From Mobula hypostoma (Eukaryota): a DNA stretch of 64,000 bases. The notes under the pieces were generated by a model. It was given only the letters and a program-made list of their open reading frames with translations, had not been told where the DNA came from and did not search any database. A program made the position numbers and the translations under genes. The stretch's first letter is position 1. Each line of letters begins with the position of its first letter. The stretch spans positions 67,396,001 to 67,460,000 of the forward strand of contig NC_086108.1 of assembly GCF_963921235.1 (NCBI RefSeq). The letters run 5' to 3'. This document shows positions 4,395 through 37,762 of this stretch, in pieces.

Positions 4395-5654
4395 ATAAGA
4401 CCAGAAGACATAGCACCTGTATTAGGCCATTCGGCCCATCGAGTCTGCTCCACCATTCCATCATGGCTGATCCCGGATCCTGCTCAACCCCATACACCTG
4501 CCTTCTCATTATATCCTTTGATGCCCTGACTGATCAGGAAACGATCAACTTCCACCTTAAATATACCCACAGACTTGGCTTCCACCGCAGTCTGTGGCAG
4601 AGTATTCCACAAATTTACTACTCCCTTGCTAAAAAAAAAAATCCTCTTTACCTCTGTTCTAAAAGGTCGCTTCTCAATTTTGAGATTGTGCCTTTTAGTT
4701 CTGGACACCACAACTATAGGAATTATCCTCTCCATATCCACCCTATCAAATCCTTTCAACATTCAGTAGGTTTCAATGAGATCCCCCCCACTCTTACCCC
4801 ACATTCTTCTAAATTCCAGTGAGTACAGGCCCAAAGCTGTCAAACGCTCCAAATACATTGATCCCTTCATTCCTGGAACTATCCACGTGAACCTTCTCTG
4901 GACTCTCTCCAATGACAACACATTGTTTCTGAGATATGCGCCCAAAACTATTCACAATACTCCACGTGTGACCTAACTAGCGTCTTATAAAGGCTAAGCA
5001 TTATCTCTTTGCTTTTATATTTGATTCTCCTTGAAATAAATAGCAACATTGCATTTGCCTTCCTGACCACAGACTAAACCTGTAAATTAACCTCTGGGTG
5101 TCTTGCACGAGGACTCCTGAGTCCCTCTGCAGCTCTGATATTGGAACCTTCTCCCCATTTAGATAATAGTCTGCACTGTTGTTCCTTTTACCAAAATGTA
5201 TTATCATACATTTCCCGACACTGTATTCCATCTGCCACTTTTTTGCCCATTCTTCCAATTTGTCTAAGTCCTTCTGCAATCACATTTCTTCCTCAGCCCT
5301 ACCTACCTCTCCATCTATCTTTGTATCATCCACAAACTTAGCCACAAAGCCATCAATTCCACTATCTAAATCATTGACAAACAATGTGAAAAATAGCAGT
5401 CCCAATACTGTCCCCTGTGGAACACCACCGGTCAATGGCAGGCAACCAGAAAAGGACACTTTTATTTCCACTCGCTAGCTCCATTCCTCTATCCATGCCA
5501 GTATCTTTCCTGTAACACCATGGGATTTTATCTTGTTAAGCAGCCTCATGTGTGGTGCTTTATCAAATGCCATTTGAAAATCAAAGTAAATTACATCCAC
5601 TGCCTCTCCTTTGTCCACCCTGCTTGTTACTTCCTTCAAGATCTGTGACAGATT
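4395..5654 (-). mobile_element. CR1 LINE, 3' part (RT C-terminus and 3' tail); continues at 7054-8410
   Basis: Broken ORFs with GVPQGTVLGLLFF, KFVDDTK, LERVQRRFT, VVNLWNTLP; short-repeat tail near 4395. Confidence 0.9.
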
Positions 5655-6119: not shown

Positions 6120-7053
6120 TGAGTGTATAGATATTAAGAGGATGTGCTGGAGTTGTTGAAGGGCATTAAGTTAGATAAGTCCTGATGAAGGGTCTCGGCC
6201 TGAAACATCGACAGTACCTCTTCCTAGGGATGCTGTTTGGCCTACTGCGTTCACCAACAACTTTGATGTGTGTTGCTTGAATTTCCAGCATCTGCAGAAT
6301 TCCTCGTGTTTGCAAGTTAGATAAGTCACCAGCATTGAACAAGATATACTCCGAGCTACTGCGGGAAATGAGGGAGGAGATTGCTGAGCCTCTGGTGATG
6401 ATCTTTGCATCATCAATAGAGGCAGGAGAAGTACCAAAGGATTGTAAGATTGCAAATGTTGTTCCCTTGTTCAAGAACGGGAGTAGAGATAACACAGAAA
6501 ATTATATACCAGTGAGTCTTACTTCAGTGGCAGGCAAATTGTTGCAGAAGATCCTGGGAGGCAGGATTTATGAGCATTGGGAGAGACATAATCTGATTAG
6601 GGATAGTCAGCATGGCTTTGTCAAGGGCAGGTCATGCCTTATGAGCCTAATTGAATTCTTTGAGGAAGTAACAAAACACATTGATGAAGGTAGAACAGTG
6701 GATGGATTTCAGTAAGGCATTTGATAAGGTTCCCCATGCAAGGCTCATTCAGAAGGTAAGGAGGTATGGGATCCAAGGAGACCTTGCTTTGTGGATCCAG
6801 AACTGGCTTGCCCACAGAAGGCAAAGGGTGGTTGTAGATGGTTTATATTCTGCATGGAGGTCGGTGACCAGTAGTGTTCCACAGGGATCTGTTCTGGGAC
6901 CCCTCCTCTTTGTGATTTTTATAAATGACCTGCATGAGGAAGTAGAAGGATGGGTTAGTAAGTCTGCTGATAACACGAAAGTTGGGGGTGCTGTGGATAG
7001 TCTGGAGGGTTGTCAGAGGTTACAGCAGAACACCGATAGGATGCAGAACTGGG
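6120..7053 (+). mobile_element. CR1 LINE RT fragment
   Basis: ORFs 6335-6715 and 6681-7196: [48 protein letters not shown]. Confidence 0.9.
6182..6313 (+). mobile_element. Short PLE terminal-repeat insertion with minimal hammerhead motif
   Basis: 14-bp TSD AAGTTAGATAAGTC at 6168-6181 and 6314-6327; insert begins CTGATGA-agggtctcggcct-GAAAC-atc; homologous to the 3' tails of the PLEs ending at ~37762 and 56409. Confidence 0.85.
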
Positions 7054-8410
7054 TTTGTCAGGCAAGATTTACTTTTACAGAAACCACGCTGAATTTGACT
7101 TATTTTATCATTAGTCTCCAAGTACCCAGAACCTCATCTTTAATAATACACTCCAACACTTTTCCAACCACTGAGGTTAGGCTAACTGGCCTATAATTTC
7201 CTTTCTTTTGCCTTCCTCCCTTCTTAAAGAGTGGAGTGACATTTGCAATCTTCCAGACCTCTGGGACCATGCCAAAATCAAGTGATTCTTGAAAGATCAT
7301 GATCGTTATCTCTTCAGCAACCTCTCTCAGGACTCTGGGATGTTGTCCATCTGGCCCAGGTGACTTATCCACCTTAAGTCCTTTGAGTTTGCCTAGCACT
7401 TTTTCCTTTCTAACAGCAATGGCACTCACTCCTGCTCCTTGACATTCATGGACCTCTGGCATAATGCTAGTGTCTTCTACATTGAAGACAAATGCAAAGT
7501 ACCCATTCAGGTTATTTGCTATTTCTTTGTCCCCCATTACTACTTCACCAGCATCATTTTCCAATGGTCTAATATCAACTATCACCTCAGTTTTACTCTT
7601 TATATATCTGAAAACGCTTTTAATATCTTGCTTTATATTATTGGCTAGTTTGCCCTCATATTTCATTTCTTCCCTTCTTATAGCTTTTTTTTAGTTGTCT
7701 TTTGTCGGATTTTAAAAGCTTCCCAATCATCCAACTTCCCACTCACTTTTGCTATCTTATATACCCTTTCCTTGGCTTTTATGCAGTCCTTAACTTCCTT
7801 TGGCAGCCACAGTTGCCTAGCCCTAACATCTGAGAACTTCTTCTGTGGGACTTAATCTATCCTGCGCCTTGTGAACTATTCCCAGAAACTTCAGCTATCT
7901 CTGCTCTGCCGTCATCCCCGCCAGTATCCTCCTCCAATCCACCTGGGCAAGCTCCTCTCTCATGCCTCTGTAATTCCCTTTATTCCATTGCAATACCGAT
8001 ACATGTGAGTTATGCTTCTCCCTCTCAAACTGCAGTATGAATTCAATCATATTAAAATCAATGGCTCCTAAGGGTTCCTTTACATTAAGCTCTCTAATAA
8101 GATCTTGGTTATTACACAACATTTAATCTAAGCTCACCTTTCCCTGAGTAGGCTTGAGCATTAGCAGCTCCAAAAAGCCATCTCATAGGCATTCAACAAA
8201 TTAACAAATTCCCTCCCTCATGATCTGACACCAACCTGATTTTCCTGATCCCTTTGCATATTGAAGTCCCCCATTACAATTGTATGATTACTTCATTACA
8301 TGCTTTTTCCAGCTCCCTTTGCAATCTCAACCCCACATCTTGGCTGCTAATTGGAGACCTATATATGGTTCCCATAATGTGTTTGTTTTACCCTTGCAGT
8401 TTTGATCTTT
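7054..8410 (-). mobile_element. CR1 LINE, upstream part (endonuclease end, linker, RT start) of the element at 4395-5654
   Basis: ORF 7100-7666 KSPGPDG, WKIANVTPLFKKG, NYRPVSLTS; the junction 'gacagatt|tgtcaggcaagattt' rejoins the two halves. Confidence 0.85.
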
Positions 8411-8435
8411 ATATGACCCCATTTGTTCTTTTGTT

Positions 8436-10460
8436 ATAGAACAAAGAACATAGAATAGTACAGCACAGTACAGGCCCTTCAGCCCACAATGTTGTGCCGA
8501 CCCTCAAACCCTGCCTCCCATATAAGCCCCCACCTTAAATTCCTCCATATACCTGTCTAGTAGTCTCTTAAACTTCACGAGTGTATCTGCCTCCACCACT
8601 GATTCAGGCAGTGCATTCCACGCACCAACCACTCTCTGAGTAAAAAACCTTCCTCTAATAACCCCCTTGAAGTTCCCACCCCTTACCTTAAAGCCGTGTC
8701 CTCTTGTATTGAGCAGTGGTGCCCTGGGGAAGAGACGCTGGCTATCCACTCTATCTATTCCTCTTATTATCTTGTACACCTCTATCATGTCTCCTCTCAT
8801 CCTCCTTCTCTCCAAAGAGTAAAGCCCTAGCTCCCTTAATCTCTGATCATAATGCTTACTTTCGAAACCAGGCAGCATCCTGGTAAATCTCCTCTGTACC
8901 CTTTCCAATGCTTCCACATCCTTCCTATAGTGAGGTGACCAGAACTGGACACAGTACTCCAAGTGTGGCCTAACCAGAGTTTTATAGAGCTGCATCATTA
9001 CATCGCGACTCTTAAACTCTATCCCTCGACTTATGAAAGCTAACACCCCATAAGCTTTCTTAACTACCCTATCCACCTGTGAGGCAACTTTCAGGGATCT
9101 GTGGACATGTACCCCGAGATCCCTCTGCTCCTCCACATTACCAAGTATCCTGCCATTTACTTTGTACTCTGCCTTGGAGTTTGTCCTTCCAAAGTGTACC
9201 ACCTCACACTTCTCCGGGTTGAACTCCATCTGCCACTTCTCAGCCCACTTCTGCATCCTATCGATGTGTCTCTGCAATCTTTGACAATCCTCTACACTAT
9301 CTACAACACCACCAACCTTTGTGTCATCTGCAAACTTGCCAACCCACCCTTCTACCCCCACATCCAGGTCGTTAATAAAAATCACGAAAAGTAGAGGTCC
9401 CAGTACCGATCATTGTGGGATACCACTAGTCACAATCCTCCAATCTAAATGTACTCCCTCCACCACCACTCTCTGCCTTCTGCAGGCAAGCCAATTCTGA
9501 ATCCACCTGGCCAAACTTCCCTGGATCCCGTGCCTTCTAACTTTCTGAATAAGCCTACCGTGTGGAGCCTTGTCAAGTGCCTTACTAAAATCCATATAGA
9601 TCACATCCACTGCACTACCCTCATCTATATGCCTGGTCACCTCCTCAAAGAACTCTATCAGGCTTGTTAGACACGATCTGCCCTTCACAAAGCCATGCTG
9701 ACTGTCCCTGATCAGACCATGATTCTCTAAATGCCTATAGATCCTATCTCTAAGAATCTTTTCCAACAGCTTTCCCACCACAGATGTAAGGCTCACTGGT
9801 CTATAATTACCCGGACTATCCCAACTACCTTTTTTGAACAAGGGGACAACATTCGCCTCCCTCCGGTACCATTCCCGTGGACAACGAGGACATAAAGATC
9901 CTAGCCAGAGGCTCAGCAATCTCTTCTCTCACCTCGTGGAGCAGCCTGGGGAATATTCTGTCAGGTCCCGGGGACTTATCTGTCTTAATGTATTTTAACA
10001 ACTCCAACACCTCCTCTTCCTTAATATCAACATGCTCCAGAACATCAACCTCACTCATATTGTCCTCATCATCATCAAGTTCCTTCTCATTGGTGAATAC
10101 TGAAGAGAAGTATTCATTGAGGACCTCGCTCACTTCCACAGCCTCCAGGCACATCTTCCCACCTTTATCTCTAATCGGTTCTACCTTCACTCCTGTCATC
10201 CTTTTTTACTTCACATAATTGAAGAAGTAGGGTTTTCCTTTACCCTACTCGCCAAGGCCTTCTCATGCCCCCTTCTTGCTCTTCTCAGCCCCTTCTTAAG
10301 CTCCTTTCTTGCTTTCCTATATTCCTGAATAGACCCATCTGATCCCTGCTTCCTAAACCTCATGTATGCTGCCTTCTTCCACTTGACTAGATTTTCCACC
10401 TCACTTGTCACCCATGGTTCCTTCACCCTACCATCCTTTATCTTCCTCACCGGGACAAAT
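8436..10460 (-). mobile_element. Relatively young 5'-truncated CR1 LINE
   Basis: Uninterrupted 293-aa RT C-terminal ORF 8504-9385 ([22 protein letters not shown]) plus upstream frameshifted ORFs; ATAGAAC-type tail at 8436-8458. Confidence 0.95.
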
Positions 10461-12939
10461 CATCTGTACTTTCATGGCTATCCTTGAGTTTATCTTCCAA
10501 TTTTTTTTTTAATTTTAAGGTTCTCTCGTTAACACAAAGTACTTCCTCAGCAATGAATGCTGCTATAATCGGCAACTGCCTGATTCCCATCTCCACAATG
10601 AATAGTAAAATTGAATTGGAGTATTTGACAGTCAGTTAATCTTCCAAAATATATTTTCCTACTTCATTGGCAGAGTTAAACTTCACCCCACCGGCCTCCT
10701 TTTCCATCCTACCCCTGTATTTTTTCTGTATCAGCTCATTATGAAATGTGCAAGAGCATGTAGACATTCAAAAATAAAGTAACAAATGTAATTCATTTTC
10801 ATGCAATGTTGAGGTTAGACCACCTCAGGGCAAAATCAAAGACAGACACATTTATACAAAGGATGTTGTGCTGCAATATGAATCTGGAGTAAGATTGTAG
10901 TTTTATATACAATATTAGCATGCTATTGTGCAATCAAAGGAACAAGTACTCTATTCAAACTGTATCAGTATTTCATCAAACTGAATTTAGATTTTCTTCA
11001 TACTCCCAGGTCTTATCAGACAAACTTGCAGAATGTCTAATATTCTCAGTGACTTGGCCCTGCTGGTACTGTATCAGTCAATAGATCAAGGGCACTTACT
11101 CCATAAAATGAGTATAGTTGATGGTTCCACTGTGTCTGATGCTTCCCTTCACATATTTCCCCAGACAAGCAAACCAAATAGGTAACAGCTTTCCGAATGA
11201 TACTGAACAGATTTTGACTGAAAAAAAACTACCCACATGTGCTTTTTAAAAATTTTGTCAATCCTATTTCTTTAGATGGCAGGATATTAATTGTTGGCAG
11301 CCGGTGTTAAGAACTTGCAGACTCAAAGGAGTCAGAAACAAATGTGATAGATGTCATGAAGCCAGTTCTTCTGTTATTTATCAGATTACAAACTTGTTGC
11401 CAACCATGAATTGAAGTTAAAAGAATTAGTATTATTGCACTTACAGAAGCTTTATCACAAATATAAATCTTTTTATGACTCCTAAAATTCAGAGCTTAGA
11501 TGATATTACTGACATTATTACTAATTCAAGGTCAAAGGTTATCTGGTTCTGGGAAATAAATGTTAAAATGGTCACCATCAATTTTTAGAGTTATTGAATC
11601 GTGTGTTCTCCAGTGCAGACTGATCACATAAGCAACTTATAACTCACATCAGGGGAAATGCCTACAATGGGATGCTGATATAACACTTTTTCAAAAGCAT
11701 GCCAATATTGTCATCAATTAAGACAATTTACATATGCATAATATATTTATTATTTACAGATAACAATAAAGGCCTCAACATACAGTGTCCATCAAGAGAA
11801 TTAGGCTTTCCTACTTTGTGGTGGTTGGAGTCAGATTTAGCAGGGCACTCCAACATCACACCTACACATTCCATTCTGGGTCCTTAGTCTCCTGTGCATA
11901 ACTTCTCAAGATTTAACTTAGGAGTTCCGGCTATTAGAAACATTTGTGCAGAATTCTTCAGTAGATCATTTTGGAATATCTTAAAATGCTTATTTGGCTG
12001 ACCAAAGCATAAAAGAGTAATCTTGATAAGTATAGCACAAAGAGTAAATTTTAATTCACCAGTAAACATAAACATATAAAATATTAATGAATGTTTGATT
12101 TGTTAATTTTTTAAACCAAATCTTTGTGCAGCTTATTATCGGAATTTAAAAGCTGATTTAAATTATTGTATATTTTGGTAGATAAAATAGAACGTACTCC
12201 TATATTGGCATAAAACAGCATACTAAAATACTGGTTTTATAATTCCCAGTGAATAGGAACATCAATTAATATGTCAGTATCACCTTCAACCCCCACATGT
12301 TCTAAAAAATATCAGATCCCTTTTCTGCATTTTATGAAATATTTAAAAAGAAGATTACTGGTGCAGATTTTTGATAAACTGTAAGTTTGATGAACTTTTT
12401 TTTGGATAATTATTTGAGTGATATGCTATAATCTCATAGAGAACATATTTTTACATAGCAAGAGCTCTAAATTTGCCCATGAAACAATAGTGCAAATTCA
12501 TATATAATTACTAAAATATGTGCTCTAATTCTTAATTTATTTCTCTATTCAATATTCAGTGTGTACAAGATTAAGGCTTCAGCTGGGAGGTTATGGATAC
12601 TGGTGGTAGGGTAGATGGCGGCATGCCAACTGAAGGAGAGAACAGAATATCAAACAGAAAAGGAAAAATATATAAAAGTTGATTTCAAAATCGAACATCA
12701 TACTTTGACAAACTTACTAACTTTCTAAGAAGGTAATAGAAGCAATTGCCGCTGGTAATGTAGTGGAAGTATTTCATCCATTTTTCCAAAAACCTTTCAA
12801 TATGGTACACCATATTAATAAGATCAGAGAATGTGAAATCAGGGGTAAGCAACAGAATGAATTGCTAGCTGGATTCAGGATAACTATTCACAGTAGAAAA
12901 AGATGATAACACTGTTCCATCAGGGTCAATGCTGTTTAC

Positions 12940-15378
12940 CATATACCCACGAACTTGGCCTCCACCGCAGTCTGTGCCAGAGCATTCCACAGATTCACTA
13001 CTTTCAGGCTGAACAAATTCCTCCTTAACTCTGTTCTAACAGGTCACCTCTCAATTTTGAGGCTGTGCCCTTTAGTTCTGGATACCCCGACCAGAGGAAA
13101 CATACTCTCCATATCCACCTTATCTAATTCTTTCAACATTTCAAAGGTTTCAATGAGATCTCCCTGCATTCTTCTAAATTCCAGTGAGTACAGGCCCAAA
13201 ACTGCCCACCCTCCTCATAGGTTAACCCCTTCTTTCCTGGAATCATCCTCGTGAACCTCCTCTGGACTCTCTTCAATGATAACACATTTTTCCTGAGATA
13301 TGGGGCCCAAAACTGTTGACAATACTCAATGTGCAGCCTGACTAGTGACTTATAAAGCTTCAGCATTATCCTCTTGTTTTTATATTCTATTCCCTTTGAA
13401 ACAAATGACAACATTGCACTTGTCCTCTTTACCACAGACTCAACCTGCAAATTAACTTTCTGAGAGTCCTGAACAAGGACTCCTAAGTCCCTCTGCACCT
13501 CTGATGTTTGAATTTTCTCTGCATTTAAATAACAGTCTGCACTATTGTTCCTTTTACCAAAGAGCATTATCATACATTTCCCAACACTGCATTCCATCTG
13601 TTATTTTTGCCCATTCTTCCAATTTGTCTAAGTTCTGCTGCAATCGCACTACCTCAGCACTACATAGCCCTCCACCTATCTTTGTATCATCTGCAAAATT
13701 TGCCACAAAACCATCAATACCATGATCTAAGCAGCACATACAAAATACTGGAGGAACTCAGCAGGCTAGGCAGCATTTATAGAAAAAAGTACAGTCGACG
13801 TTTCGAGCTGAGACCCTTTGGCAGGACTGGAGAGAAAAAAGCTGAGGGGTAGATTTAAAAGGTTGGGGGAAGGGGAGAGAGAAACACAAGGTGATAGGTG
13901 AAGCTTGAAGGGGGCGGGATGAAGTAAAGAGTTGAGAAGTTGATTGGTGAAAGAGATACAGGGCTGGTAAGGAGGGAGTATGATAGGAGAGGACAGAAGG
14001 CCATGGAAGAAAGAAAAGGGGGGAGGAGCACCAGAGGGAGGTGATGGGCAGGCAAGGAGAAAGGTGAGAGAGGTAAAAGGGGATGGGAAATGGTGAAGGA
14101 GTGGAAGAGGGCATTACTGGAAATTAAAGAAATCCACTAACTAAATCATTTGCAAACAGCATGAAAAATAGCAGTCCCAATACTGCCCCCTGAGGAACAC
14201 CACTGGTCACTGGCAGCCAGCTAGAAAAGACCCTCTTTATTTCCACTCAGTACCTCCTGCCTGTCAGTATTTCCTCTATCCATGCCAGTATCTTTCCCGT
14301 AACACCGTAGGATTTTACCTTGTTAAGCAGCCTCATGTGAGGCACCTTATCAAACGCCTTCTGAAAATCTAAGTAAGTGACATCCAATGCCTCTCCTTTG
14401 TTCTGCTTGTTACTTCCTCAAAGAATTCTAACAGATTGTCAGCCAAGATTTCCCCTTACAGAAACCCATGCTGACTTTGACTTATTTTTATCATTAGTCT
14501 CCAAGTACCCCCAAATCTAGTCCTTAATAACAGACTCCAATGCTTCCCCAACAACTGAGATTAGGCTAACCGGCCTATAATTTCCTCTCTTTTGTCTTCT
14601 TCCCTTCTTAAAGAGTGGAGTGACATTTGCAATTTTCTAGTCCTCCGGGATCATGCCAGAATCGAGTGATTCTTGAAAGATCATGATCAATGCATCTGTT
14701 AACTCTTCAGCAACCTCTCTCAAGATTCTGGGATGTAGTCCATTTGGCCCAGGTGACCTGTCCATCTTAAGATCTTTGAGATTGTGTAGCACTTTTTCAT
14801 TTGTATTAGCAGTGGCACTCACTCCTGCTCCATGACACTCACGGACTTCTGGCACACTGCTAGTGTCTTCTACAGTAAAGACTGAAGCAGAGTACTTATT
14901 AAGTTCATCTGATGTTTCTTTGTCCCCCATTACTACCTCACCAGCATCATTTTCCAGTGATCTAATACCAACTCTCATCTTCCTTTTATTCTTTATTTAA
15001 CTAAAAATCTTTTAGTACCCTGCTTTGTATTATTGGCTAGTTTGCCCTCATATTTAATCTTTTCCCTTCTTATAGCTCTTTTAGTTGCCTTTTGTTGGTT
15101 TTTAAAAACTACTCAGTCATCGAACTTTCCACTCACTTTTGCTACCTTATATGTCCTTTCTTTGGCTTTTATACAGTCCTTAACTTCCGTTGTCAGCCAC
15201 AGTTGCCTACCCCTGCCATTTGAAAACTTCTTCCATGGGACGTATCTATCCTGAACTACTTCCAGAAATTTCAGCCACCTTTGTTCTGTCGTCATCCCCT
15301 CCAATCCACCTGGGCAAGCTCCTCTCTCATACCTCTGGAATTCCCTTTATTCCATTGCAATACTGATACATGTGATTA
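12940..15378 (-). mobile_element. Decayed CR1 LINE interrupted by a PLE tail
   Basis: ORFs 13133-13597, 13554-13739 (NFADDTK), 14637-14978 (SPGPNGLHPRIL). Confidence 0.9.
13731..14130 (-). mobile_element. PLE 3' repeat fragment
   Basis: Antisense homologue of 37390-37730, with pyrimidine-rich tract and hammerhead-like ...GAAACGTCGACTG; degenerate ~14-bp TSD. Confidence 0.8.
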
Positions 15379-16889
15379 AAAATACTGTTTCTAAATATGA
15401 AGGTAAAATGAAGTTTGAGGGATAATTACCTCCACATATTCTTGCAGCTACTTCTAGATCTAAATTTCTTATTCAAGAAAACTCTACACACCTTAGCCTC
15501 TATTCATTTGTGAAGCCCTCTCTCATTTTAACCTGTGTCCACATTCAAATTCCATCCCTACCTGTCCCTGCCCACAGTCTTTTGGAGGATATCCTTAGAT
15601 ACTACCTCTATTTTGTGAAATTCATCCAGGCTCTCCACACAGACAGGAATGGTGCAAGCAACTGAGACTCTCCCAGCTCACTACCAAAAAGTGAAAATCC
15701 ATATTCTATTGATTAAACACAAGTTAGCAACATGTTTCTTTATGGAATCCATGTTTTATATTCACAATAATTGCTTTAAAATTTCATTTCAAGTCAAAGA
15801 GTTTTTTAAAAAGGTGAAATTTTACTCAGATGCTACATGACCTATTGAGTTCCACTAGCAGATTACTTGTCGAAAACTTAAATAAATGTGTATATTGATT
15901 CAATTGATCAGCTTCAACAAGAACTACACTTCAAAGTTATTAAATGTATCTAAAATATGTTGATGACTTTGGATGGTACTCCATGGATGTAAACTCATCA
16001 TTGGTGAGAGGATTTCAAGCCCACCATCAAGTATTAAAATGATAAAATGTACCACATGGACCAGGTGATTCTTTCAGTTTGTAGTCTAAATACAGGTTCC
16101 TGTCTGACAGCTCAGTTAATGCTACGTAGGGAAACAAGAGTGAATGGATATAAATTCTCCTCCATCAGATATTCAGATTCAAGATGCAACCAACAGTTCT
16201 ACAATGAGAAGATAGTGCCTTAACAATACAATCTAATCTGTTTGGCATGAATTTACTATTTGAAAGTACTATATTTCAACCATGTTGACTATTAATCAAA
16301 CTAATTGAAAGATACTACGTAATAAATGTAAAATGGTTTCCTATTGAAGATTTGTCCTCTCATGTTCATATAATTATGTCAGAAATGCAATGATTCCTTT
16401 TTGTTTTCCCACATCATTATTCTCACCATACTTTTTCCATTCTTGCATATGTGCTGAAACCACAAGGAGACATAACATCCCATGGTCGACAGGAACTGAT
16501 GCAGACACCACCACAGAGGGAAATGATGAGCAGTCAGCCCCAAGCTTATCACCACATCTGGATTTAGCACAGTACAACTGCCTTCCAGTTTTAAGTTATT
16601 ACAACACAGCAACAAGTAATTAATCTCATAGAAATTCTCTGTGAAACATGCAACAAAGTTAAAAAAAATTGATACTTTAGTAATGGAACCTTAATGTTTG
16701 GATGGCGCAGCACCTATAAACAATCTGTCGAGCTTTTCCAAAACTCTGCTGTGTGTGTCCTAACTCACACCATCTCCTCGCCACGCATCAGCCCAGAGCT
16801 GACTGTAAGAGGGCAATCAGTGGGATAAAGGAGGCCTTTTTCAGTTGGCTGCTGGTAACTAATGGTATTCTGTGGTGGGGGGGGGGGTC

Positions 16890-17531
16890 GTCGTCGTCAT
16901 GGCTATCACTCAAGGTCTAGGATGATGGCCTTCATTCTATTGATCTACTTATGGGCTCTCAAGTGGCTTATGAGTCCAACCATGGCTTTGAAAGTTCTTC
17001 CGCATTCAGGACAGGTAGTTCCAGATGGCAGATTGGGCTTTGGTTGTTGCTGCCTCTCTTTCCATTTTCTTCTCTCTTCTTCTAATTCTGCACATCTGTT
17101 GACTTCAAAAGTTGCTGTTCCTTCTCGGATGATGGCTTGCCAGAGTTTCCTGTCCTTGGCATTGGTTTCCCAATTGTTGATGTCGATGTAACATTTCTTC
17201 ATGTCCCAATGCTCCTGTATGCATCAGAAACCTGGAGAACATACCGACGACACCTGAAGGCACTTGAAAAGTTCCACCAACGCTGTCTTTGAAACATCTT
17301 AGATATCAGCCGGGAAGATAGAAGAACCAACATTAGCATGCTAAATGAAGCAAAAACAACAAGCATTGAAGCCTACGTCATCAAGAACCAACTAAGATGG
17401 AGCGGTCATATTGTTCGGATGAAAGACGAACGTCTGCTGAAACAAATCTTCTACTCCCAGCTTAAAGAAGGCAAATGTAAAAGTGGTGGACAACAGAAGA
17501 GATTCAAAGATGTCTTAAAAGCCAACATGAA
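16890..17531 (-). mobile_element. RTE-clade LINE 3' fragment with 5' inversion
   Basis: Minus arm ORF 16945-17202 ends in C2H2 finger CPECGRTF..HLRAH, then a (GAC)n tail; plus arm LLYASETW...QLRWSGH...KRFKDVLKANMK; TSD GGGGGGGTC at 16881-16889 and 17532-17540. Confidence 0.9.
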
Positions 17532-17889
17532 GGGGGGGTCCACTACTTTTCATGTTATATGACAAATATGATAATGATCTAGATGGTGGAATTGATCCCT
17601 TTCCGGCCAAGTCTGTTAATGATGCAAAGATAGGTGGAGGGCAGATAGTACTGAAGAAACAGGGAGTCTGTGGAAAGATTTGGATAGATTAGGACATTGG
17701 GCAAAGAAGTCACAGATAGAATACAGTGTAGAGAAGTTCACAATCATGCAGTTTGGTGGGAGGAATAAAGGCTTAGACTATCTTCTGAACAGGGAGTGAA
17801 TTCAGAAATTGTAAGGGAAAAGGGACTTGGAAGTCCCTAGTGCAGGACTTTCTAAAGGTTAACTTGTAGGTTGAGTTAGTGGTAGGAGG

Positions 17890-18952
17890 GATTATACCAG
17901 ATCCAGAACTGGCTTGAGAAGGCAAAGAGTGGTTGTAGACGGGTCATATTCTGCATGGAGGTCGGTGACTAGTGGTGTGCCTCAGGGATCTGTTCTGGGA
18001 CCCCTACTCGTCGTGATTTTTATAAATGACATGGACGAGGAAGTGGAGGGATGGGTTAGTAAGTTTGCTGATGACACAAAGGTTGGCGGTGTTGTGGAGA
18101 GCTGTCAGAGGTTACAGCGGAACATTGATAGGTTGCAACACTAGGCTGAGAAGTGGCAGATGGAGTTCAACCCAGATAAGTGTGAAGTGGTTCATTTTGG
18201 TAAGTCAAGTATGATGGCAGAATATAGTATTAATGATAAGATTCTTGGCAGTGGGAGGATCAGAGGGATCTTGGGGTCTGAGTCCATAAGACATTCAAAA
18301 CAGCTGCACAGGTTGACTCTGTAGTTAAGAAGGCATACAGTGTATTGGCCTTCATTAATCGTGGTATTGAATTTAGGAGCCGAGAGGTAATGCTGCAGCT
18401 ATATAGGACCCTGGTCAGACCCCACTTAGAGTACTGTGCTCAGTTCTGGTCGCCTCACTACAGGAAAGACGTGGAAGCCATTGGAAGGGTGCAGAGATTT
18501 ACAAGGATGTTGCCTGGATTGGGGAGCATGCCTCATGAAAACAGGTTGAGTGAACTCAGCCTTTTCTCCTTGGAGCAACGGAGGATGAGAGGTGACCTGA
18601 TAGAGGTGTATAAGATGATGAGAGGTATTGATCGTGTGAATAGTCAGAGGCTTTTTCCCAGGGCTGAAACGGTTGCCACAAGAGGACACAAGCTTCAGGT
18701 GCTGGGGAGTAGGTACAGAGGAGATGTCAGGAGTAAGTTTTTTACTCAGAGAGTGGTGAGTGCGTGGAATGGGCTGCTGGCAATGGTGGTGGAGGCAGGT
18801 ACGATTGGGCCTTTTAAGAGACTTTTGGATAGGTACATGGAGCTTAGAAAAATAGAGGGTTATTGGTCAGCCTAGTAATTTGTACAGACATGTTCAGCAC
18901 AACTTTGTGAGCCGAAGGGCCTGTATTGTGCTGTAGGTTTTCTATGTTTCTA
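17890..18952 (+). mobile_element. Younger 5'-truncated CR1 LINE
   Basis: ORFs 17914-18144 ([17 protein letters not shown]) and 18345-18875; tail tttctatgtttcta. Confidence 0.92.
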
Positions 18953-20094
18953 CACAATGTTAGCATTTATTTCCAGAGGACGTTTTGGGCCAAATGTCTA
19001 AGAGAGGAAGTGGTGGCATTGGAGAGGTTTTGGAGGAGTTCACAAGAATGATCCTGGGAATGAAAAGATTAATGTATAAGGAGTGTTTATTGGCTGTGGA
19101 TAAGTACTCCCTGGAGTTTAAAGAATGAGGGAGGATCTCATAGAAACCTACAGAATTTTGAAAGGCTTAGATAGAGTGGATGTGGTGAGGATATTTCTAA
19201 AAGTGAAAGAGTCTAGAATCAGAGGGTGGAATCTCAGAATAGAAGGATGTGTCTTTAAAGCAGAGATGTGGAGGAAGCTTTTTAATTAGAGGGTGGTGAA
19301 TCTATAGAATTCATTGTCACAGATAGCCATGGAGGCCAAGTCCTCAGGTATTTTTAAAGCAGAAGTTGAAAAGTTCTTGATTAGTAAGTGTGTCAAAGGG
19401 CATGGGGAGAAAGCAGCAGAATGGGGTTGAGGGGAAAATCAGTTAGACTAGATAAAATCAGAGCAGACTTGATGGGCCAAATTGCCTAATTCTGCTCTTT
19501 TGTCTTATGGTCTTATGCTCACTGACCTACATTAATTTCTATCCCAGATATACCTTAATATGAAATTCCTAATCTTCTCTTTCCAACCACTGCATTGCCT
19601 TGCCCTTCCCATTTCTGTAATCACTCATCCCACCCCACAAGCCAACAAGCTATTAATGACTGACTACATTAAATCTCATTGTTACTCCAATAATACCTCA
19701 GCCCCCATGCCTGAAAATCCCTTTCTAAAGCTCCTCATCTTTTTTATTTTACCATCTTCCTGTAGCACACTCCTTAAAACACCCTTTGGTCATTTTGAAT
19801 ATTTCTCCTCATATCTTTGTCTGTAGCTTGATATCAACGTTGGTTTAACAGTACACCTGTGAAGCACATTGCTGTGTTGATTTTGCTGTAAAAATATAAA
19901 TCATTGTTGTTGATGTCTTTATTCTGTCACACACACATTATTTTACAAGGAAATGTATTAATTAGGAGTTTACAAAGCATAAAAAGTGCACAGAATACAT
20001 TTAATCTAAGTTAGTGCATCTACTTATGCTGATTCTAGACCAAGCCTATCTTATTCTCCTATGTTTGCATCAGCTTCTTCAGTTCTCTCTATCT

Positions 20095-20265
20095 GATCCT
20101 ACCAGCCAGCTACACACTGGGACTACTTACAGGGTAGAGTTAACATCCAGCCCACTTACCCTTGGAAAACCTTCAGAAGAGTGTGCAAACCCCACACTGA
20201 TAGCAACTGAGGTTATAACTGGTTCATGAAGCTGAAGTCCTGAGACGGCAGTTCTACTAGCTTCT
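20095..20265 (-). mobile_element. Decayed V-SINE (HE1-like)
   Basis: 'gtgtgcaaaccccacactgatagcaactgagg' resembles the antisense V-SINE central domain. Confidence 0.4.
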
Positions 20266-21125
20266 AAAAACATGTTTATCTCCTACATTTTCCAGCTCTG
20301 TTAAAAGTTAATACGTTGAAACACTGAGCTAGTTCACTTTAGGTTCCCATGGGTTCCTTGCTGCCTCAGTAACCCTCTATGGTCATGTGGCTCCTATGAA
20401 GCAGACTGATCCGTGATCGTTGTGTAGGCCCCAGTAGGTGAATCTCTCAGTCTGCACCACCAAACAGTCTTAACGGCTTGTTGGGAAAGAAGGTCTTTAT
20501 CACTACTTCAGAATGTTCAATTCAGAAACAGTTCAAGTATATATAAAGAAATACAAAAGTAAATACTTATTCAAAAATATACTTATAAAATGTTTACCTC
20601 ATGTGAGTTAATTAAAATATTATCAGTCTATAAAAGGAAACAAGCATACCATTTAACTTTGTTTGCAGTTTTAAAGATGACGAATTTTGCTTAAATGCTA
20701 GTGATATCAGGCAATAATGTTGAGAGGGCAGACCAATTCTATGCAATTGGAAATCCCTATTGGATCATATCAAATCATCAAATCCGAAAGCACTGATGCG
20801 GAAGCCCAGAAAGCACATTACAGTTAGCCAGTAGTTCCCTGCATTTACATAGCAGTCAGCTGAAAGCATCAATATAATCCTGCTGATACACTCCATCTTG
20901 ATATTAGTATTGCTATTGGTTTATTATTATTGAGATACAATGAAAAGCTTGTCTTGCACATAGATCAGATCATTACACTGCGTATTGAGACAGTATGAGT
21001 TAAAACAGTAACAGAATGTGGAATGAAGTGTAACAGCTATGGAGAAAGTGCAATGCAGGTAAACAATGAGGTGCAAGATCATAACTGGGTAAATTGTGAC
21101 ATCAAGAGTCCAAATTATCATATTA

Positions 21126-23703
21126 AACATAGAACGTAGAACATAGAAAACCTACAGCACAATACACAAAGCTGTGCCAAACATGTCCTTACCTTAGACC
21201 AACCCAGGCTTACCATAGCCCTCTATTTTTCTAAGCTCCATGTACCTATCCAGGAGTCTCCTAAAAGACCCTATCGTTTCCACCTCCACCACCGCTGATG
21301 GCAGCATATTCCACACACTCACCACTCTCTGCGTAAAAAACTTACCCCTGACATCTCCTCTCTACATTCTTCCAAGCACCTTAAAATTGTGCCCTCTTGT
21401 GCTGGCCATTTCAGCCCTGGGAAAAAGCCTCTGACTACCCACACAATCAATGCCTCTCATTATCTTAGACATTTCTATCAGGTCACCTCTCATCCTCCGT
21501 CGCTCCAAGGAGAAAAGGCCGAGTTCACTCAACCTATTCTCATAAGGCATGCTCCCCAATCCAGGCAATATCCTTGTAAACAACACACATAAAAGTTGCT
21601 GGTGAACACAGCAGGCCAGGCAGCGTCTATAGGAAGAGGTACAGTCGACGCTTTGGGCTGAGACCTTTCGTCTTTTCAGTTAGTCCTTACGAAGGGTCTC
21701 GGCCCGAAACATCGACTGTACCTCTTCCTATAAATGTTGCCTGGCTTGCTGCGTTCACCAGCAACTTTTATGTGTGTTGCATGAAATTCCAGCATCTGCA
21801 GATTTCCTCATGTTTGCGTTTTCAAATATCCTTGTAAATCTCCTCTGCACCCTTTCTATGGTTTCCACATCCATCCTGTAGCGAGGCAACCAGAATTAAG
21901 CACAGTACTCCAAGTGGGTCTGACCAGGGTCCTATAAAGCTGCAACCTTACCTTTTGGCTCTTGAACTCAGTCCCACGGTTGATGAAGGCCAATGCACCA
22001 TACGCCTTCTTGACCACAGAGTCAACCTGCGCAGAAGCTTTCAGTGCCATATGGACCCAGACGTCAAGATCCCTTTGAACCTCCACACTACCAAAAGTCT
22101 TACCATTAATGCTACATTCTGCCATCGTGTTCGACCTACCAAAATGAACCACCTCACACTTATCTGGGTTGAACTCCATCCGCCACTTCTCAGCCCAGTT
22201 TTGCATCCTATCAATGTCCCGCTGTAACCCCTGACAGCCCTCCACACTATCCACAACACCCTCAACATTCGTGTCATCAGCAAATTTACTAACCCATCCC
22301 TCCACATCCTCATCCAGGGTCATTTATAAAAATCACAAAGAGTAGGGGTCCCAGAACAGATCCTTGAGGCACTCCACTGGTCACCAGTCTCCATGCAGAA
22401 TATGACCTGTCTACAACCACTCTTTGCCTTCTGTGGGCAAGCCAGTTCTGGATCCACAAAGCAATACCCCCTTGGATCTCAGGCATACTTTCTCAATAAA
22501 ACTTGCATGGGGTACCTTGTCAAATGCCTTGCTGGAATTCATATACACTACATCTATGGCTCTACCTTCATCAATGTGTTTAGTCAGATCCTCAAAAAAT
22601 TCAATCAGGCTCGTAAGGCACGACTTGCCTTTGACAAAGCCATGCTGACTATTTCTAATCATATTATGCCTCTCCAAATGTTCATAAATCCGGCCTCCCA
22701 GGATCTTCTCCATCAACTTACCAACCACTGAAGTAAGACTCACTGGTCTATTATTCCTTGGGCTATCTCTAGTCCCTTTCTTGAATAAGGAAACAGCATC
22801 CACAACCCTCCAATCCTCCAGAACCTCTCCCATTCTCATTGATGATGCGAAGATCATCACCAGAGGCTCAGCAATCTCCTCCGTTGCTTCCCACAGTAGC
22901 CTGGGGTACATCCCATCCAGTCCGGTGACTTACCCAAGTTGATGCTTTCCAAAAGCTCCACCACGTCCTCTTCTTTAATATCTACATGCTCAAGCTTTTC
23001 ACTCTGCTGCAAGTCATCCCTATAATCACCAAGATCCTTTTCTGTAGCGAATACTGAAACAAAGTATTCATTAAGTACCTCTGCTATCTCCTTCGGTTCC
23101 ATACACACTATTCCACTCTCACACTTGATTGGTCCTATTCTCTTGATTGGTCTTATCCCCTTGCTCTTCACAAACTTGTAGAATGACTTGGGGTTTTTCT
23201 TAATCCTATCCGCCAAGGCCTTCTCATGGCCCCTTCTGACTCTCCTAATTTCATTCTTAAGCTCCTTCCTGCTAGTCTTATAATCTTCAAGATCTCTATC
23301 ATTACCTAGTTTTTTAAACCTTTCATAAGCTCTTTTCATCTTGACTAGATTTACAACAGCCTTTGTACACCACAGTTCCTATACCCTACCAACCGTTCCC
23401 TGTCTCATCGGAACGTACCTATGCAGAAACCCACAAAAAAAATCCCCTGAACATTTGCCACATTTCTTCCGTACGTTCCCCTGAGAACGCCTGTTTCCAA
23501 TTTATGCTTCCAAGTTCCTGCCCGATAGCCTCATATTTCGCTTTACTCCAATTAAATGTTTCCCTAACTTGTCTGTTCCTATCCCTCTCCAATGCAGTGG
23601 TAAAGGAGATAGAATTGTGATCAGTATCTCCAAAATGCTCTCCCACTGACAGACCTGACACCTGACTAAGTTCATTTCCTAATACCAGCTCAAGTACAGC
23701 CTC
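21126..23703 (-). mobile_element. CR1 LINE, 5'-truncated
   Basis: ORFs 23419-23661 (GDTDHN endonuclease end), 22857-23339, 22411-22911, 21856-22323 (KFADDT); tail aacatagaacgtagaacataga. Confidence 0.93.
21581..21824. mobile_element. Palindromic mini-PLE insertion
   Basis: 14-bp TSD AATATCCTTGTAAA at 21567-21580 and 21825-21838; inverted arms ~21581-21672 and ~21689-21779. Confidence 0.88.
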
Positions 23704-27663: not shown

Positions 27664-28149
27664 ACGTACTTGGAGGGCCAAAAAGCTGGTGTTGGTGCTG
27701 AGTATCCTTGTATAACAGTTTACGTCCCAATACAACACTTTACTATTTTTCTTTAATACTTCCATTTGACAATTCTCTTCCAACTTTTCACATCATTCCA
27801 TTGCATGATACTTTTGTATGTAGCCTGTTGAACGTCCTCAGATTTACTCTCTCCACCATTCATGTCAAAAGCTTCAGTTTTCAAGACGCTATCACATAAG
27901 TCCCTTCACAATCTTCTCCTTGTTACCTCCTACAACATGCTTCTTAGACCGAATTCTAGATTTCTTAGACCAAATTCTAGATTTCTATATCAACGGCTTT
28001 TGCAGAAAACAAATGCACAAGGTGTAGGAGATAACATATACAATCTATTATGATAAACAGTTACTTGATCAACAGAAAACAGAGAATATGCATAAATGCA
28101 TCATTTCCTGTTTGGCGAAATGTAATGAATGGTTTGTGATAGAATGGTT

Positions 28150-28745
28150 TGCAACGACCAACCTGCGGCCTGACCTGGTCCTTTGGTCCAACTCCTGTTG
28201 GCGAGTCTTTATCATTGAGCTGACGGTCCCCAGGAGGATGCTGTGGATGAGGCTTACAAACGGAAAAGGCTGCGATATGCCAACCTTGCAGTTGAAGCAG
28301 AGGAGCGAGGCTGGAACGTAAAGCTGCGCCCAGTTGAGGTGGGGTGCAGGGGCTTTGTAGCCAGTTCCACCGTAAGGCTGCTGAGGGACGTAGGGGTCAG
28401 AGGGCAGGCCCATAGGAAGGCAATCAAAGCACTTGCTAATGCTGCGAAATGAGCGGTCACTGGCTCTGGCTGAAAAGAAGGGATGCTGTCTGGGCTACCA
28501 AGTGACCATCTGGAGACTAACCATGTGACACACATCCAGGTCTGATCAGCCTGTGGTGGGCCTCCCTCGGCTGAGGGTGTCTTGTGATGAAAGGCCGAAA
28601 CACCCAGTGATGTTGAGGTACACAACTGAAGATGTGTCGTAATGGTAGTAACATCATCTTGTGGTCATCTTTAAGAACTACTTCCACTCAAGTCAAATGC
28701 AGTGCAGAAACTTTTAGGGATTGTAACATCCAGTCCTATTAATCA
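28150..28745 (+). mobile_element. Hero-like (RLE, R2 group) non-LTR retrotransposon 3' fragment: restriction-like endonuclease plus 3' UTR
   Basis: LRPDLVLWS..IIELTVP / EAYKRKRLRY..PVEVGCRGFVA / HWLWLKRR..WATK* across two frameshifts, stop 28503-28505; PD-(D/E) RLE domain; 3' boundary approximate. Confidence 0.85.
28565..28638 (+). ncRNA. Putative non-circularly permuted hammerhead ribozyme with kink-turn
   Basis: GUC 28579-81, GAAA 28597-600, CUGAAGA 28626-32; stem III GGGTGT/ACACCC; stem I TTGTG/CACAA; imperfect stem II; CUGA/AGUGAUG k-turn. Confidence 0.6.
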
Positions 28746-28759
28746 AACAAAGTGATGGG

Positions 28760-35631: not shown

Positions 35632-37762
35632 CTTGGCTGTCCACTCCCTCCGCACTAATCCTAACACCCTCAAAACCGCAGATAAGGGAGGTGACTTCGT
35701 AGCCCGGCGAATTGACCTCTACCTTGCTGAGGCCCAGTGTCAACTCTCGGACACCCCCTCTTGCTTACCCCTTGAACAGGATGAAAAAACACCAGGCCAT
35801 TGTCTCCCACACCATCACCAACCTTATTGACTTTGGGGATCTCCCATCCACAGCCACCAGCCTCATAGTCCACGCACCCCGCACCTCCTGTTTCTACCTC
35901 CTACCCAAAATCCACAGACCTGCTTGTCCAGGTAGACCTATTGTTTCAGCTTGTTCCTGCCCCACGGAACTCATATCTCCATACCTTGACTCTGTTTTAA
36001 CCCCCTGGTTCAGTCCCTTCCCACCTACATCTGTGACACCTCACATAGTCTTGATCTTTCCAAGGACTTCAGGTTCCCTGGCCCCCATTATTTTATTTTT
36101 ACTATGGATGTCCCGTCCCTGTGCACCTCCATCCCCTACCAGGAAGGCCTCAAATCTCTCTGTTTCCTTCTGGACACCAGACCAATACATTTCCCCTCCA
36201 CCACCACTCTCCTCTGCCTAGCAGAATTTGTCCTCACTCTAAATAATTTCTCCTTTGAGTCTTCCCATGTCCTTCAAACAAAAGGGCATTCGCATGGGTC
36301 CCAGCTATGACTGCCTGTTTGTCGGGTACGTGGAACAGTCTATGTTCCAAGCCTACACTGGTGACCATCCCTCACCATCGACCGCTGTATTGGTGCTGCT
36401 TCTTGAACCTGTGCTGAACTCGTCGATTTCATCCACTTTGCCTCCAACTTCCACCCAGTACTCAAATTCACCTGGTCCATTTCCGACACTTCTCTTCCCT
36501 TTCTCAATTTCATAGTCTCTCTCTCCAGAGACAGCTTATCCACTGATGTCTATTATAAACCAACGGATTCTCAGAGCTAACTGGACTATACCTCATCCCA
36601 CCCTGTTACCTGTAAAAACGCCACCCCCTTCTCTCAATTCCTCCATCTCCGCTGCATCTGTTCTCAGGATGAGGCTTTTCATTCTAGAGCAAAGGAAATG
36701 TCCTCCTTTTTCCTCCAGCATAAACGCTGCCCTCAACTGCATCTCTTCCATCTCACGCACGTCTGCTTTTACCCCATCCTTTCGCCATGCTACCAGGGAT
36801 AGGGTTCCTCTTGCCCTCACGTACCACCCCACCAGCCTTTGCATTCAACACATAATCCTCCAAAACTTCCGCCACTTCCAAATGGATCCCACCACCAAAC
36901 ACGCCTTTCCCTCTACTCCACTTCCGGCTTTCTGCAAGGATCGTACCCTCTGTGACTCCCTCGTCCATTCATCCCTCTCCACTGATCTCCCTTCTGGCAC
37001 TTATCCTTGCAAGCGGAACAAGTGCTTCACCTGCCCCTACACTTCCTCCCTCACTACCATTCAGGGCCTCAAACAGTCCTTCCAGGTGAGGTGACACTTC
37101 ACCTGTGAGTCTGTGGGGGTCATATATTGAATTCAATGCTCCCAGTGTGGCCTCTTGTATATCGGTGAGACTGACATAGATTGGGAGACTGCTTTGCCAA
37201 GCATCTATGTTCCATCTGCCGAAACAAGCGGGATCTCCCAAAGGCCAACCATTTTAATTCCACCTCCCATTCCCATTCCAATATGTCTGTCCATGGCCTC
37301 CTCCACTGTTGAGATAAGGCCACACTTAGATTGGAGGAACAACACCTTATATTTTGTTTGGGTAGCCTCCAACCTGATGGCATGAAGATCGATCTCTCAA
37401 ATTTCCAGTAATGCCTCCAACAACGCCCCTTCACCATTTCCCATCTCCTTTCCCTCTCTCGTGTTATCTCCTTGCCCACCTCTTCTTTTCCATGGCCTTC
37501 TTGTCTCTTTCACCAATCAACTTCCCAACTCTTTGTGTCATTCCTCCCCCTCCAAGTTTCACCTGTTGCTTGGTGTTTCTCTGTCCCCTCCCCCCACCTT
37601 CCAAATCTACTCCTCAGTATTTTTTCTCCTTTTCTGCCAAAGAGTTTCAGCCTGAAACATTGACTGTACTTTTTTCTATAGATGCTGCCTGGCCTGCTGA
37701 GTTCCTCCAGCATTTTGTGTGTGTTGCTTGAATTTCCGGCATCTGCAGATTTTCTCTTGCTT
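35632..37762 (+). mobile_element. Penelope-like element (RT + GIY-YIG), decayed
   Basis: ADKGG, FYLLPKIHR..PGRPIVS, MDVPSLCTSIP, MGPSY, YIGET; pyrimidine-rich 3' repeat. Confidence 0.92.

Follow-up and report, generated by a model that had tools for sequence, protein, structure and literature searches.

The window analysed here, a stretch of 64,000 nucleotides of Mobula hypostoma DNA (contig NC_086108.1), contains in the 3' UTR of a decayed LINE an RNA motif built on a hammerhead core that, as the comparison of related copies indicates, is real, deeply conserved and of a new connectivity. The backbone appears to be opened between the core nucleotides A9 and G10.1, where a clamp helix and a hairpin would make a perfect four-way junction, and the motif probably processes the RNA of an R2-group LINE for replication through a circle. 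Circular replication is unexpected for this class of elements. A sequence-only reading of the same DNA had proposed a non-circularly permuted hammerhead core, with its blocks in the order S-G-C, in the 3' UTR of an RLE-type LINE. The observation is partly confirmed, all the core elements being intact in the window and every string that was named lying where it had been placed, and its interpretation is partly supported; the four-way junction, a k-turn, a bridging helix and the head-to-tail anatomy of complete copies had been missed.

The LINE copy and its relatives

The copy in the window (Table 1) comprises 600 bp and ends at a 3' terminus common to its 30 best genomic relatives, which are 92-94% identical and lack poly(A); the flanks of the family A relatives in the genome are unrelated between copies. 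In the longer copies a single ORF encodes an N-terminal zinc finger, a reverse transcriptase (RT), a CCHC knuckle and an RLE domain (motifs recognized by eye, with an RVT_1 domain match), and relatives of this ORF, of about 1,170 amino acids, occur in fishes, one lamprey and one bivalve. We call the element Hero-like, a provisional name that agrees with the description of the clade. The traits by which the HERO clade is described (PMC4640811, PMC9004415), namely a single ORF, an RT, a C-terminal CCHC knuckle plus RLE and no strict target site, are all found here.

The stop codon of the ORF remnant is the TGA at 28503-05. The motif follows this RLE stop codon, as had been read from the sequence, and stem III begins 70 nt downstream of it. 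At another locus (L113) the ORF reads through strand a' and stops at a TGA in the loop of hairpin B, so that translation and folding would compete. At the opposite side of the motif, the tail sequence at 28716-28738, located 10-40 nt upstream of the 3' end, is a candidate start signal for target-primed reverse transcription (TPRT). In complete copies the 3' end of the element runs on into the 5' start.

Table 1. Features of the LINE copy and of the RNA motif in the window (positions of the window; double changes, both partners of a pair substituted)
Feature	Position	Strand	Evidence or remark
RLE-type (Hero-like) LINE, family A, 5'-truncated copy, no poly(A)	28149..28748	+	91-93% identity with seven longer copies
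ORF C-terminal remnant (RLE domain), broken	28149..28505	+	tblastn with intact relatives: three pieces, 74-82% identity
Strand a', 5' side of the clamp helix, pairs with 28633-39	28526..28532	+	91% paired; 4/7 pairs with double changes; pair probability 0.7-0.95
Hairpin B, GAUC-containing loop, arm of the four-way junction	28533..28558	+	double changes in 5 of the 6 pairs counted
True stem II 5' strand (G10.1 = G28559), pairs with 28592-96	28559..28563	+	pair probability 0.84-0.93
Strand d of the helix bridging the far ends of stems I and II, pairs with 28612-18	28565..28571	+	133/140 cells paired, many pair types
K-turn, non-bulged strand (U, then GA)	28572..28574	+	GA in 26/28; likewise in F and G
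Stem III 5' strand with terminal GUC; cut predicted after C28581	28575..28581	+	covaries, F versus G
Stem I 5' strand	28582..28586	+	all 5 positions paired in 28/28; double changes in 4 pairs
Stem II 3' strand (28592-96), G12-A13-A14 (28597-99), stem III 3' strand (28600-05)	28592..28605	+	
K-turn, bulged strand: 3-nt bulge, GA, U (box C/D-like in the window family)	28606..28611	+	GA in 27/28
Strand d' (28612-18), then stem I 3' strand (28621-25)	28612..28625	+	covariation, pair probability
Core CUGANGA (C3-A9)	28626..28632	+	all four bases occur at N7
Strand a, 3' side of the clamp helix, not stem II	28633..28639	+	covariation with 28526-32
3'-terminal tail motif, then element end	28716..28748	+	common to families A, F, G, H and I

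Architecture of the motif

The fold in Table 1 is deduced from covariation. Core positions follow the usual hammerhead numbering, and G5, G8 and G12 are assigned the roles that they have in hammerheads. Alignment A1 holds 28 sequences, 6 genomic and 22 metagenomic, and 22 of its rows were retrieved with a pattern in which the core is fixed and G17 forbidden; the 5' strand of stem III is invariant in A1 because that pattern fixes it. Eight of the 30 metagenomic family matches are omitted from A1: four at contig ends, two near-duplicates, one truncated, and L095, which has a mismatch in stem I and is included in alignment A4.

Stems I and III stand as the sequence-only reading drew them. All 140 cells of stem I are paired and the stem covaries across the 28 sequences, and stem III covaries when family F is compared with family G. 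The clamp and stem I together, with the invariant stem III counted, are 96% paired and none of 500 shuffles was as good, a control that overstates significance since the rows are related by descent. The expectation that all three stems covary failed at stem II as it had been drawn, GTGTC with GGCC: this stem is 57% paired when ungapped and 71% with a bulge, its covariation is at or below that of shuffles, its pairs have a probability of about 0 in the window copy (model without pseudoknots), and in families F and G at most two of its four pairs can form. The stem II that does covary borders G12 but takes its 5' strand from upstream, not in continuity with A9; this lowers the membership of the motif in any described hammerhead type and leaves untouched the claim that it works like one. 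The pairings GGGTC/GACCC, GGCC/GGCC, GTTGA/TCAAC, GCTGA/TCAGC and ATCGA/TCRAT form this stem in the different families.

There is no unpaired linker around the hairpin between the two upstream strands, hence four helices meet at A9/G10.1. The junction helices of the window copy have pair probabilities of 0.7-0.96 in a pseudoknot-free model; the full model is 94% paired in the GGCC class, where 10 pairs have double changes, and 94% paired in families F and G. A tertiary bridge between stems I and II is provided by helix d/d', which continues the 5' strand of stem II and adjoins the 3' strand of stem I. The fold completes without a dimer, which had been envisaged as one option. We regard the fold as drawn as highly probable; the four-way junction at A9/G10.1 may distort the active site. 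A switch between two forms of stem II was also considered, and it is ruled out for families F and G and still drawable in 9 of 20 family representatives.

The joint between the d helix and stem III is a k-turn, with a 3-nt bulge and tandem GA pairs, both GA being present in 25 of the 28 sequences and also in families F and G. This arrangement is that of the standard definition, a 3-nt bulge and tandem G-A/A-G pairs between helices (PMC5689011), and in the window family it is accompanied by U-U and then G-C, as in the human box C/D k-turn (PMC5689011). It differs from known k-turns in being set within a ribozyme arm, where the kink and the binding of L7Ae/15.5K are hypothetical. A kink of 50 degrees would bring helix d back toward stems I and II; the same distance has been named as a problem for some SGC ribozymes (Eckert et al., PMC10085705). 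No hammerhead model of Rfam matched the motif, and a weak, sub-threshold match to a C/D snoRNA covers 28580-631.

Families found by protein and variants of the core

Loci chosen by the RLE protein alone comprised 18 copies of family F, 11 of family G and 1 of family A. Every stem of F and G is of new sequence and the wiring is unchanged; the strand after the core is unable to pair with the 3' strand of stem II in both families, and F is without the extra U that follows the core in the window. CUGANGA is present in 17 of the 18 family F copies. A U3-A8 swap occurs in 10 of the 11 family G copies and in the three parsed copies of family I (3/3), and it is a compensatory replacement of the C3-G8 core pair, known from natural hammerheads and active in vitro (PMC3088659, PMC4209133); its occurrence in G and I may be one event. 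N7 varies freely. At N17 all seven main own-genome families have C, A or U, and two single copies have G17. The core bases were retained while every stem sequence turned over (families F, G and I). A covariance model run on the 30 protein-picked loci gave one match and missed F and G.

A second protein search yielded 30 loci of family B, the most abundant one, with the motif in 29; stem III has a U-C mismatch in 22 of these 29 copies. In a tree of the C-terminal 330 residues the motif is found in two clades that are 39-49% identical to each other, and F and G are nested within one RT/RLE clade with support 100/99.

Distribution and chance controls

A sequence-free descriptor of the full architecture has a single match on both strands of the window, the site at issue, and none in 640 kb of shuffled window; of 30 single decayed copies, 11 are recognized as complete folds by a strict descriptor. 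The core pattern has 256 exact matches in the genome, in at least five subfamilies, and its reversed control has none. In metagenome contigs 30 of 63 core-pattern matches belong to the family and 33 were judged to be chance. A 5-bp stem I, which the pattern does not demand, is found in 29 of those 30 versus none of the 33 others, and an RT/RLE match lies immediately upstream in 15 of the 30. No motif was found in the viral and prokaryote sequence collections searched.

At 12314-12377 of the window an AU-rich chance match comprises the core and stems I and III but lacks a junction and any surrounding element. An ORF-less variant of the motif lies inside a repeat rich in telomere-like CCCTAA units (L036, L057; also G000 C9:15381 and C21:9517), and two of the copies listed are located near contig ends.

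Anatomy of the copies

According to the sequence-only reading the site would define the 3' end used for TPRT. This is contradicted by the copies, which run 86-167 nt beyond the site and of which none begins or stops there. Among 1,642 copies of family B, one candidate start at the cut site was detected and it was not truncated, in a test that detects about half of such copies; the pattern searches for ends at the cut site gave 1 and 3 matches, all continuing beyond it. No insertion was found at the site in a search that covered the minority GGGTGT subfamily, and a 2-nt insertion is present at the site in one of the 100 core-pattern matches listed.

Most complete copies are arranged head to tail. 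In family B the element's own 3' tail directly precedes its 5' start through one fixed junction in 35 of 39 5'-complete copies, and the N-terminus of the ORF follows in 38 of the 39 (the 39 are the matches listed minus the query, 40 of 290 candidates having been scored). The upstream repeat measures 21-824 nt, with 24 of the 35 repeats reaching beyond the cut site and not one ending there. In families A, H and I, which belong to the other clade, the head-to-tail arrangement was recognized by eye in about 21 of 25 copies, and by a regular expression in 18 of 25; 10 of 21 upstream repeats extend past the site. Ordinary 3' ends fade within a few bases into the sequence of the 5' start, which is what an RT starting within an uninterrupted tail-head template should produce.

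Four contigs from metagenomes (L061, L066, L076 and L077) are ORF-less, have terminal direct repeats delimiting units of 1.6-2.0 kb, and carry one intact motif each; L076 has only the 133-nt motif in common with L085. These contigs are possible retrozyme-like parasites.

Other details of the copies were noted in passing. In family B (loci L221-L259) no upstream repeat ends 75-135 nt from the junction, the span of the 5' half of the ribozyme, 11 ending before it and 24 after it; some single truncated copies (L058, L195) begin within that span. Direct repeats of the flanks occur in family A in L127 (oriented 4559-4853, 295 bp), L129 (4175-5199, more than 1 kb) and L003 (891-977, 87 bp), so that long flank repeats were seen in 3 of 33 loci examined; family B has none in 26. 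Unusually long target-site duplications and transduced flank are the candidate readings of them. One contig (run X7) fuses element sequence resembling the 5' region to 28597, and is probably an internally deleted copy.

A proposed circular template and its alternatives

The anatomy of the copies suggests a life cycle in which a hammerhead of new connectivity would turn the RNA of the retrotransposon into a circular template. A copy whose 5' start is preceded by at least about 140 nt of repeated 3' tail would carry two ribozymes, and a read-through transcript cut at both sites would give a unit RNA of about 3.7 kb, free of host sequence, whose ends would stay paired by four helices (the clamp, stem II, helix d and stem III). 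The ends would be rejoined by self-ligation or by RtcB, or at least kept as a clamped circle. The ORF protein would then begin TPRT internally, at the tail-head junction, and the RT would cross the rejoined site scar-free; more than one round would be possible, and the terminal repeat would be regenerated. A circle would explain at once the head-to-tail junctions, the repeats that extend past the site and the fading 3' ends. A scheme with a circular template has been proposed for Penelope elements (Cervera and de la Pena, PMC4209133), and in retrozymes the circles and their ligation by RtcB have been demonstrated (PMC7229834). We consider cleavage after H17 likely and, given cleavage, a role as circle or clamped circle likely as well; the circular-template model as a whole is moderately favoured. 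A reading that joins Hero-like LINEs of the R2 group, circular RNA made by a ribozyme, a seventh hammerhead topology, a k-turn that closes the fold and may be switched on by a host protein of the L7Ae family, and ORF-less retrozyme-like parasites must be tentative, with somewhat less than an even chance; in it, the catalytic strand and stem II would be linked only through the four-way junction.

That copies traverse the site intact could also mean that the RNA is never cut. The motif would then be a scaffold for docking of the RT, comparable to the 3' UTR of R2, which binds protein and positions TPRT (PMC13580325), and the hammerhead-like bases would serve shape only; the mismatch in stem III of the largest family would be in agreement with this. 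A scaffold, however, has no need to preserve a cleavable site, and the compensation at U3-A8, the restriction of N17 to C, A or U, the free N7 and the retention of the core while the stems turned over all speak for one. The head-to-tail copies could come from end-to-end template jumping, which is known for the R2 RT, or from uncut multimer transcripts, as a scaffold would require; yet within each family most complete copies share one fixed tail-head junction sequence, and untemplated jumping is an unlikely source of it. We judge a non-cleaving scaffold to be unlikely.

The same intact read-through in all copies would be obtained if the ribozyme cuts and the ends are never rejoined. The motif would act as an off-switch or timer destroying RNAs that are unprotected by their own new protein, which would impose a cis preference, and only uncut multimer RNA would be copied. 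A stop codon inside hairpin B, as in some families (L113), implies ribosomes that would unfold the junction, and a box C/D-like k-turn could make folding dependent on protein (PMC5689011), both of which suit such a timer. It leaves unexplained the regeneration of the upstream repeat at each generation, in both RT clades, and the existence of ORF-less units that have terminal repeats and a single motif, and we hold it to be quite improbable. There is finally the original proposal of a type-SGC hammerhead whose stem II would use the strand after CUGANGA, perhaps as an on-state or in a dimer, and would set the 3' end for TPRT. Its block order is indeed S-G-C, and a bulged 4-bp stem can be drawn here as well as in 9 of 20 representatives; but a stem II devoid of covariation, with no more than two of four pairs in F and G and a pair probability close to zero, together with the fact that no copy ends at the site, makes it very improbable.

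Relation to known ribozymes and retroelements

Non-circular permutations of the hammerhead are known, and the comparison with the published ones, which had been called for, identifies the strand set of the motif as that of type-SGC. In HRIMA-1 the order is stem III, GUC, stem I, linker, stem II, GAAA and stem III, and after the second strand of stem III come a bridge, stem I, CUGAUGA, U, stem II, 1 nt and a bridge (PMC10085705). The LINE motif resembles HRIMA-1 and its variant in the S-G-C order, in the short linker from stem I to stem II, in the extra U after CUGAUGA in many LINE families, and in that the stem II 5' strand, 1 nt and the bridging strand are consecutive, with d/d' sitting where the 'I' helix does. 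It differs in that the last three strands stand at the front, the break is clamped, and block C is split by the four-way junction, and also in the k-turn, which connects both strands of stem III to the bridging helix. The strand set being otherwise unchanged, the motif belongs to the SGC/CSG/GCS class as a circular permutant whose opening falls within block C. The hammerhead blocks were assumed to be uninterruptible by Eckert et al. 2023 (PMC10085705), and the SGCs published there come from metatranscriptomes, none of them from the genomes of known organisms.

Penelope-like elements and non-LTR retrozymes (PMC4209133, PMC7229834) share with these LINEs a ribozyme in a terminal repeat, partial head-to-tail tandems and the U3-A8 variant; their circular RNA templates are proposed or shown, whereas here they are predicted from the copies. 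Their hammerheads are of type I or minimal, often dimer-dependent, and reside in GIY-YIG elements or non-coding units, in contrast to the hammerhead of the window, which belongs to a single-ORF LINE with RT and RLE. With R2 and other RLE-LINEs the element has in common the single ORF with RT, CCHC knuckle and RLE, and a 3' structure near the start of TPRT. Release from a co-transcript by self-cleavage, as in R2, is predicted for it. In R2 the ribozyme is 5' and HDV-like and the template linear (PMC13580325), while here a hammerhead occupies the 3' UTR and the complete copies show terminal redundancy.

No report of the motif was found in the literature on type-SGC and non-circularly permuted hammerheads and on hammerheads in connection with Hero, non-LTR retrotransposons, four-way junctions in LINEs and k-turns, and the same literature yielded no precedent for a four-way junction at A9/G10.1. 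Hero is unmentioned in the main text of bioRxiv 10.64898/2026.07.22.740005, and a term search of PMC10162972 gave no match. Hammerhead variants with additional helices have been reported (PMC13725137).

If the present reading is true, it adds a hammerhead topology that the scheme of six permutations excludes, and places a non-circularly permuted hammerhead in animal genomes, in thousands of copies. It would moreover mean that in an R2-group LINE a single ribozyme liberates the RNA at both ends and the template that is copied is a circle; such a route has until now been proposed for Penelope elements and retrozymes. It would also answer directly how tail-less LINEs gain precise ends without poly(A). 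A predicted self-cutting unit of 115 nt, the halves of which clamp the ends of a long RNA, could be of use in the making of circular RNA and in RLE-based gene insertion.

The window contains in addition many decayed retroelement ORFs, at 6672-9928, 13133-23378, 35703-37094, 54962-55821 and 57823-58683, which we take to be CR1-like LINE RT pieces, Penelope-like RT pieces and a gag/protease-like piece.
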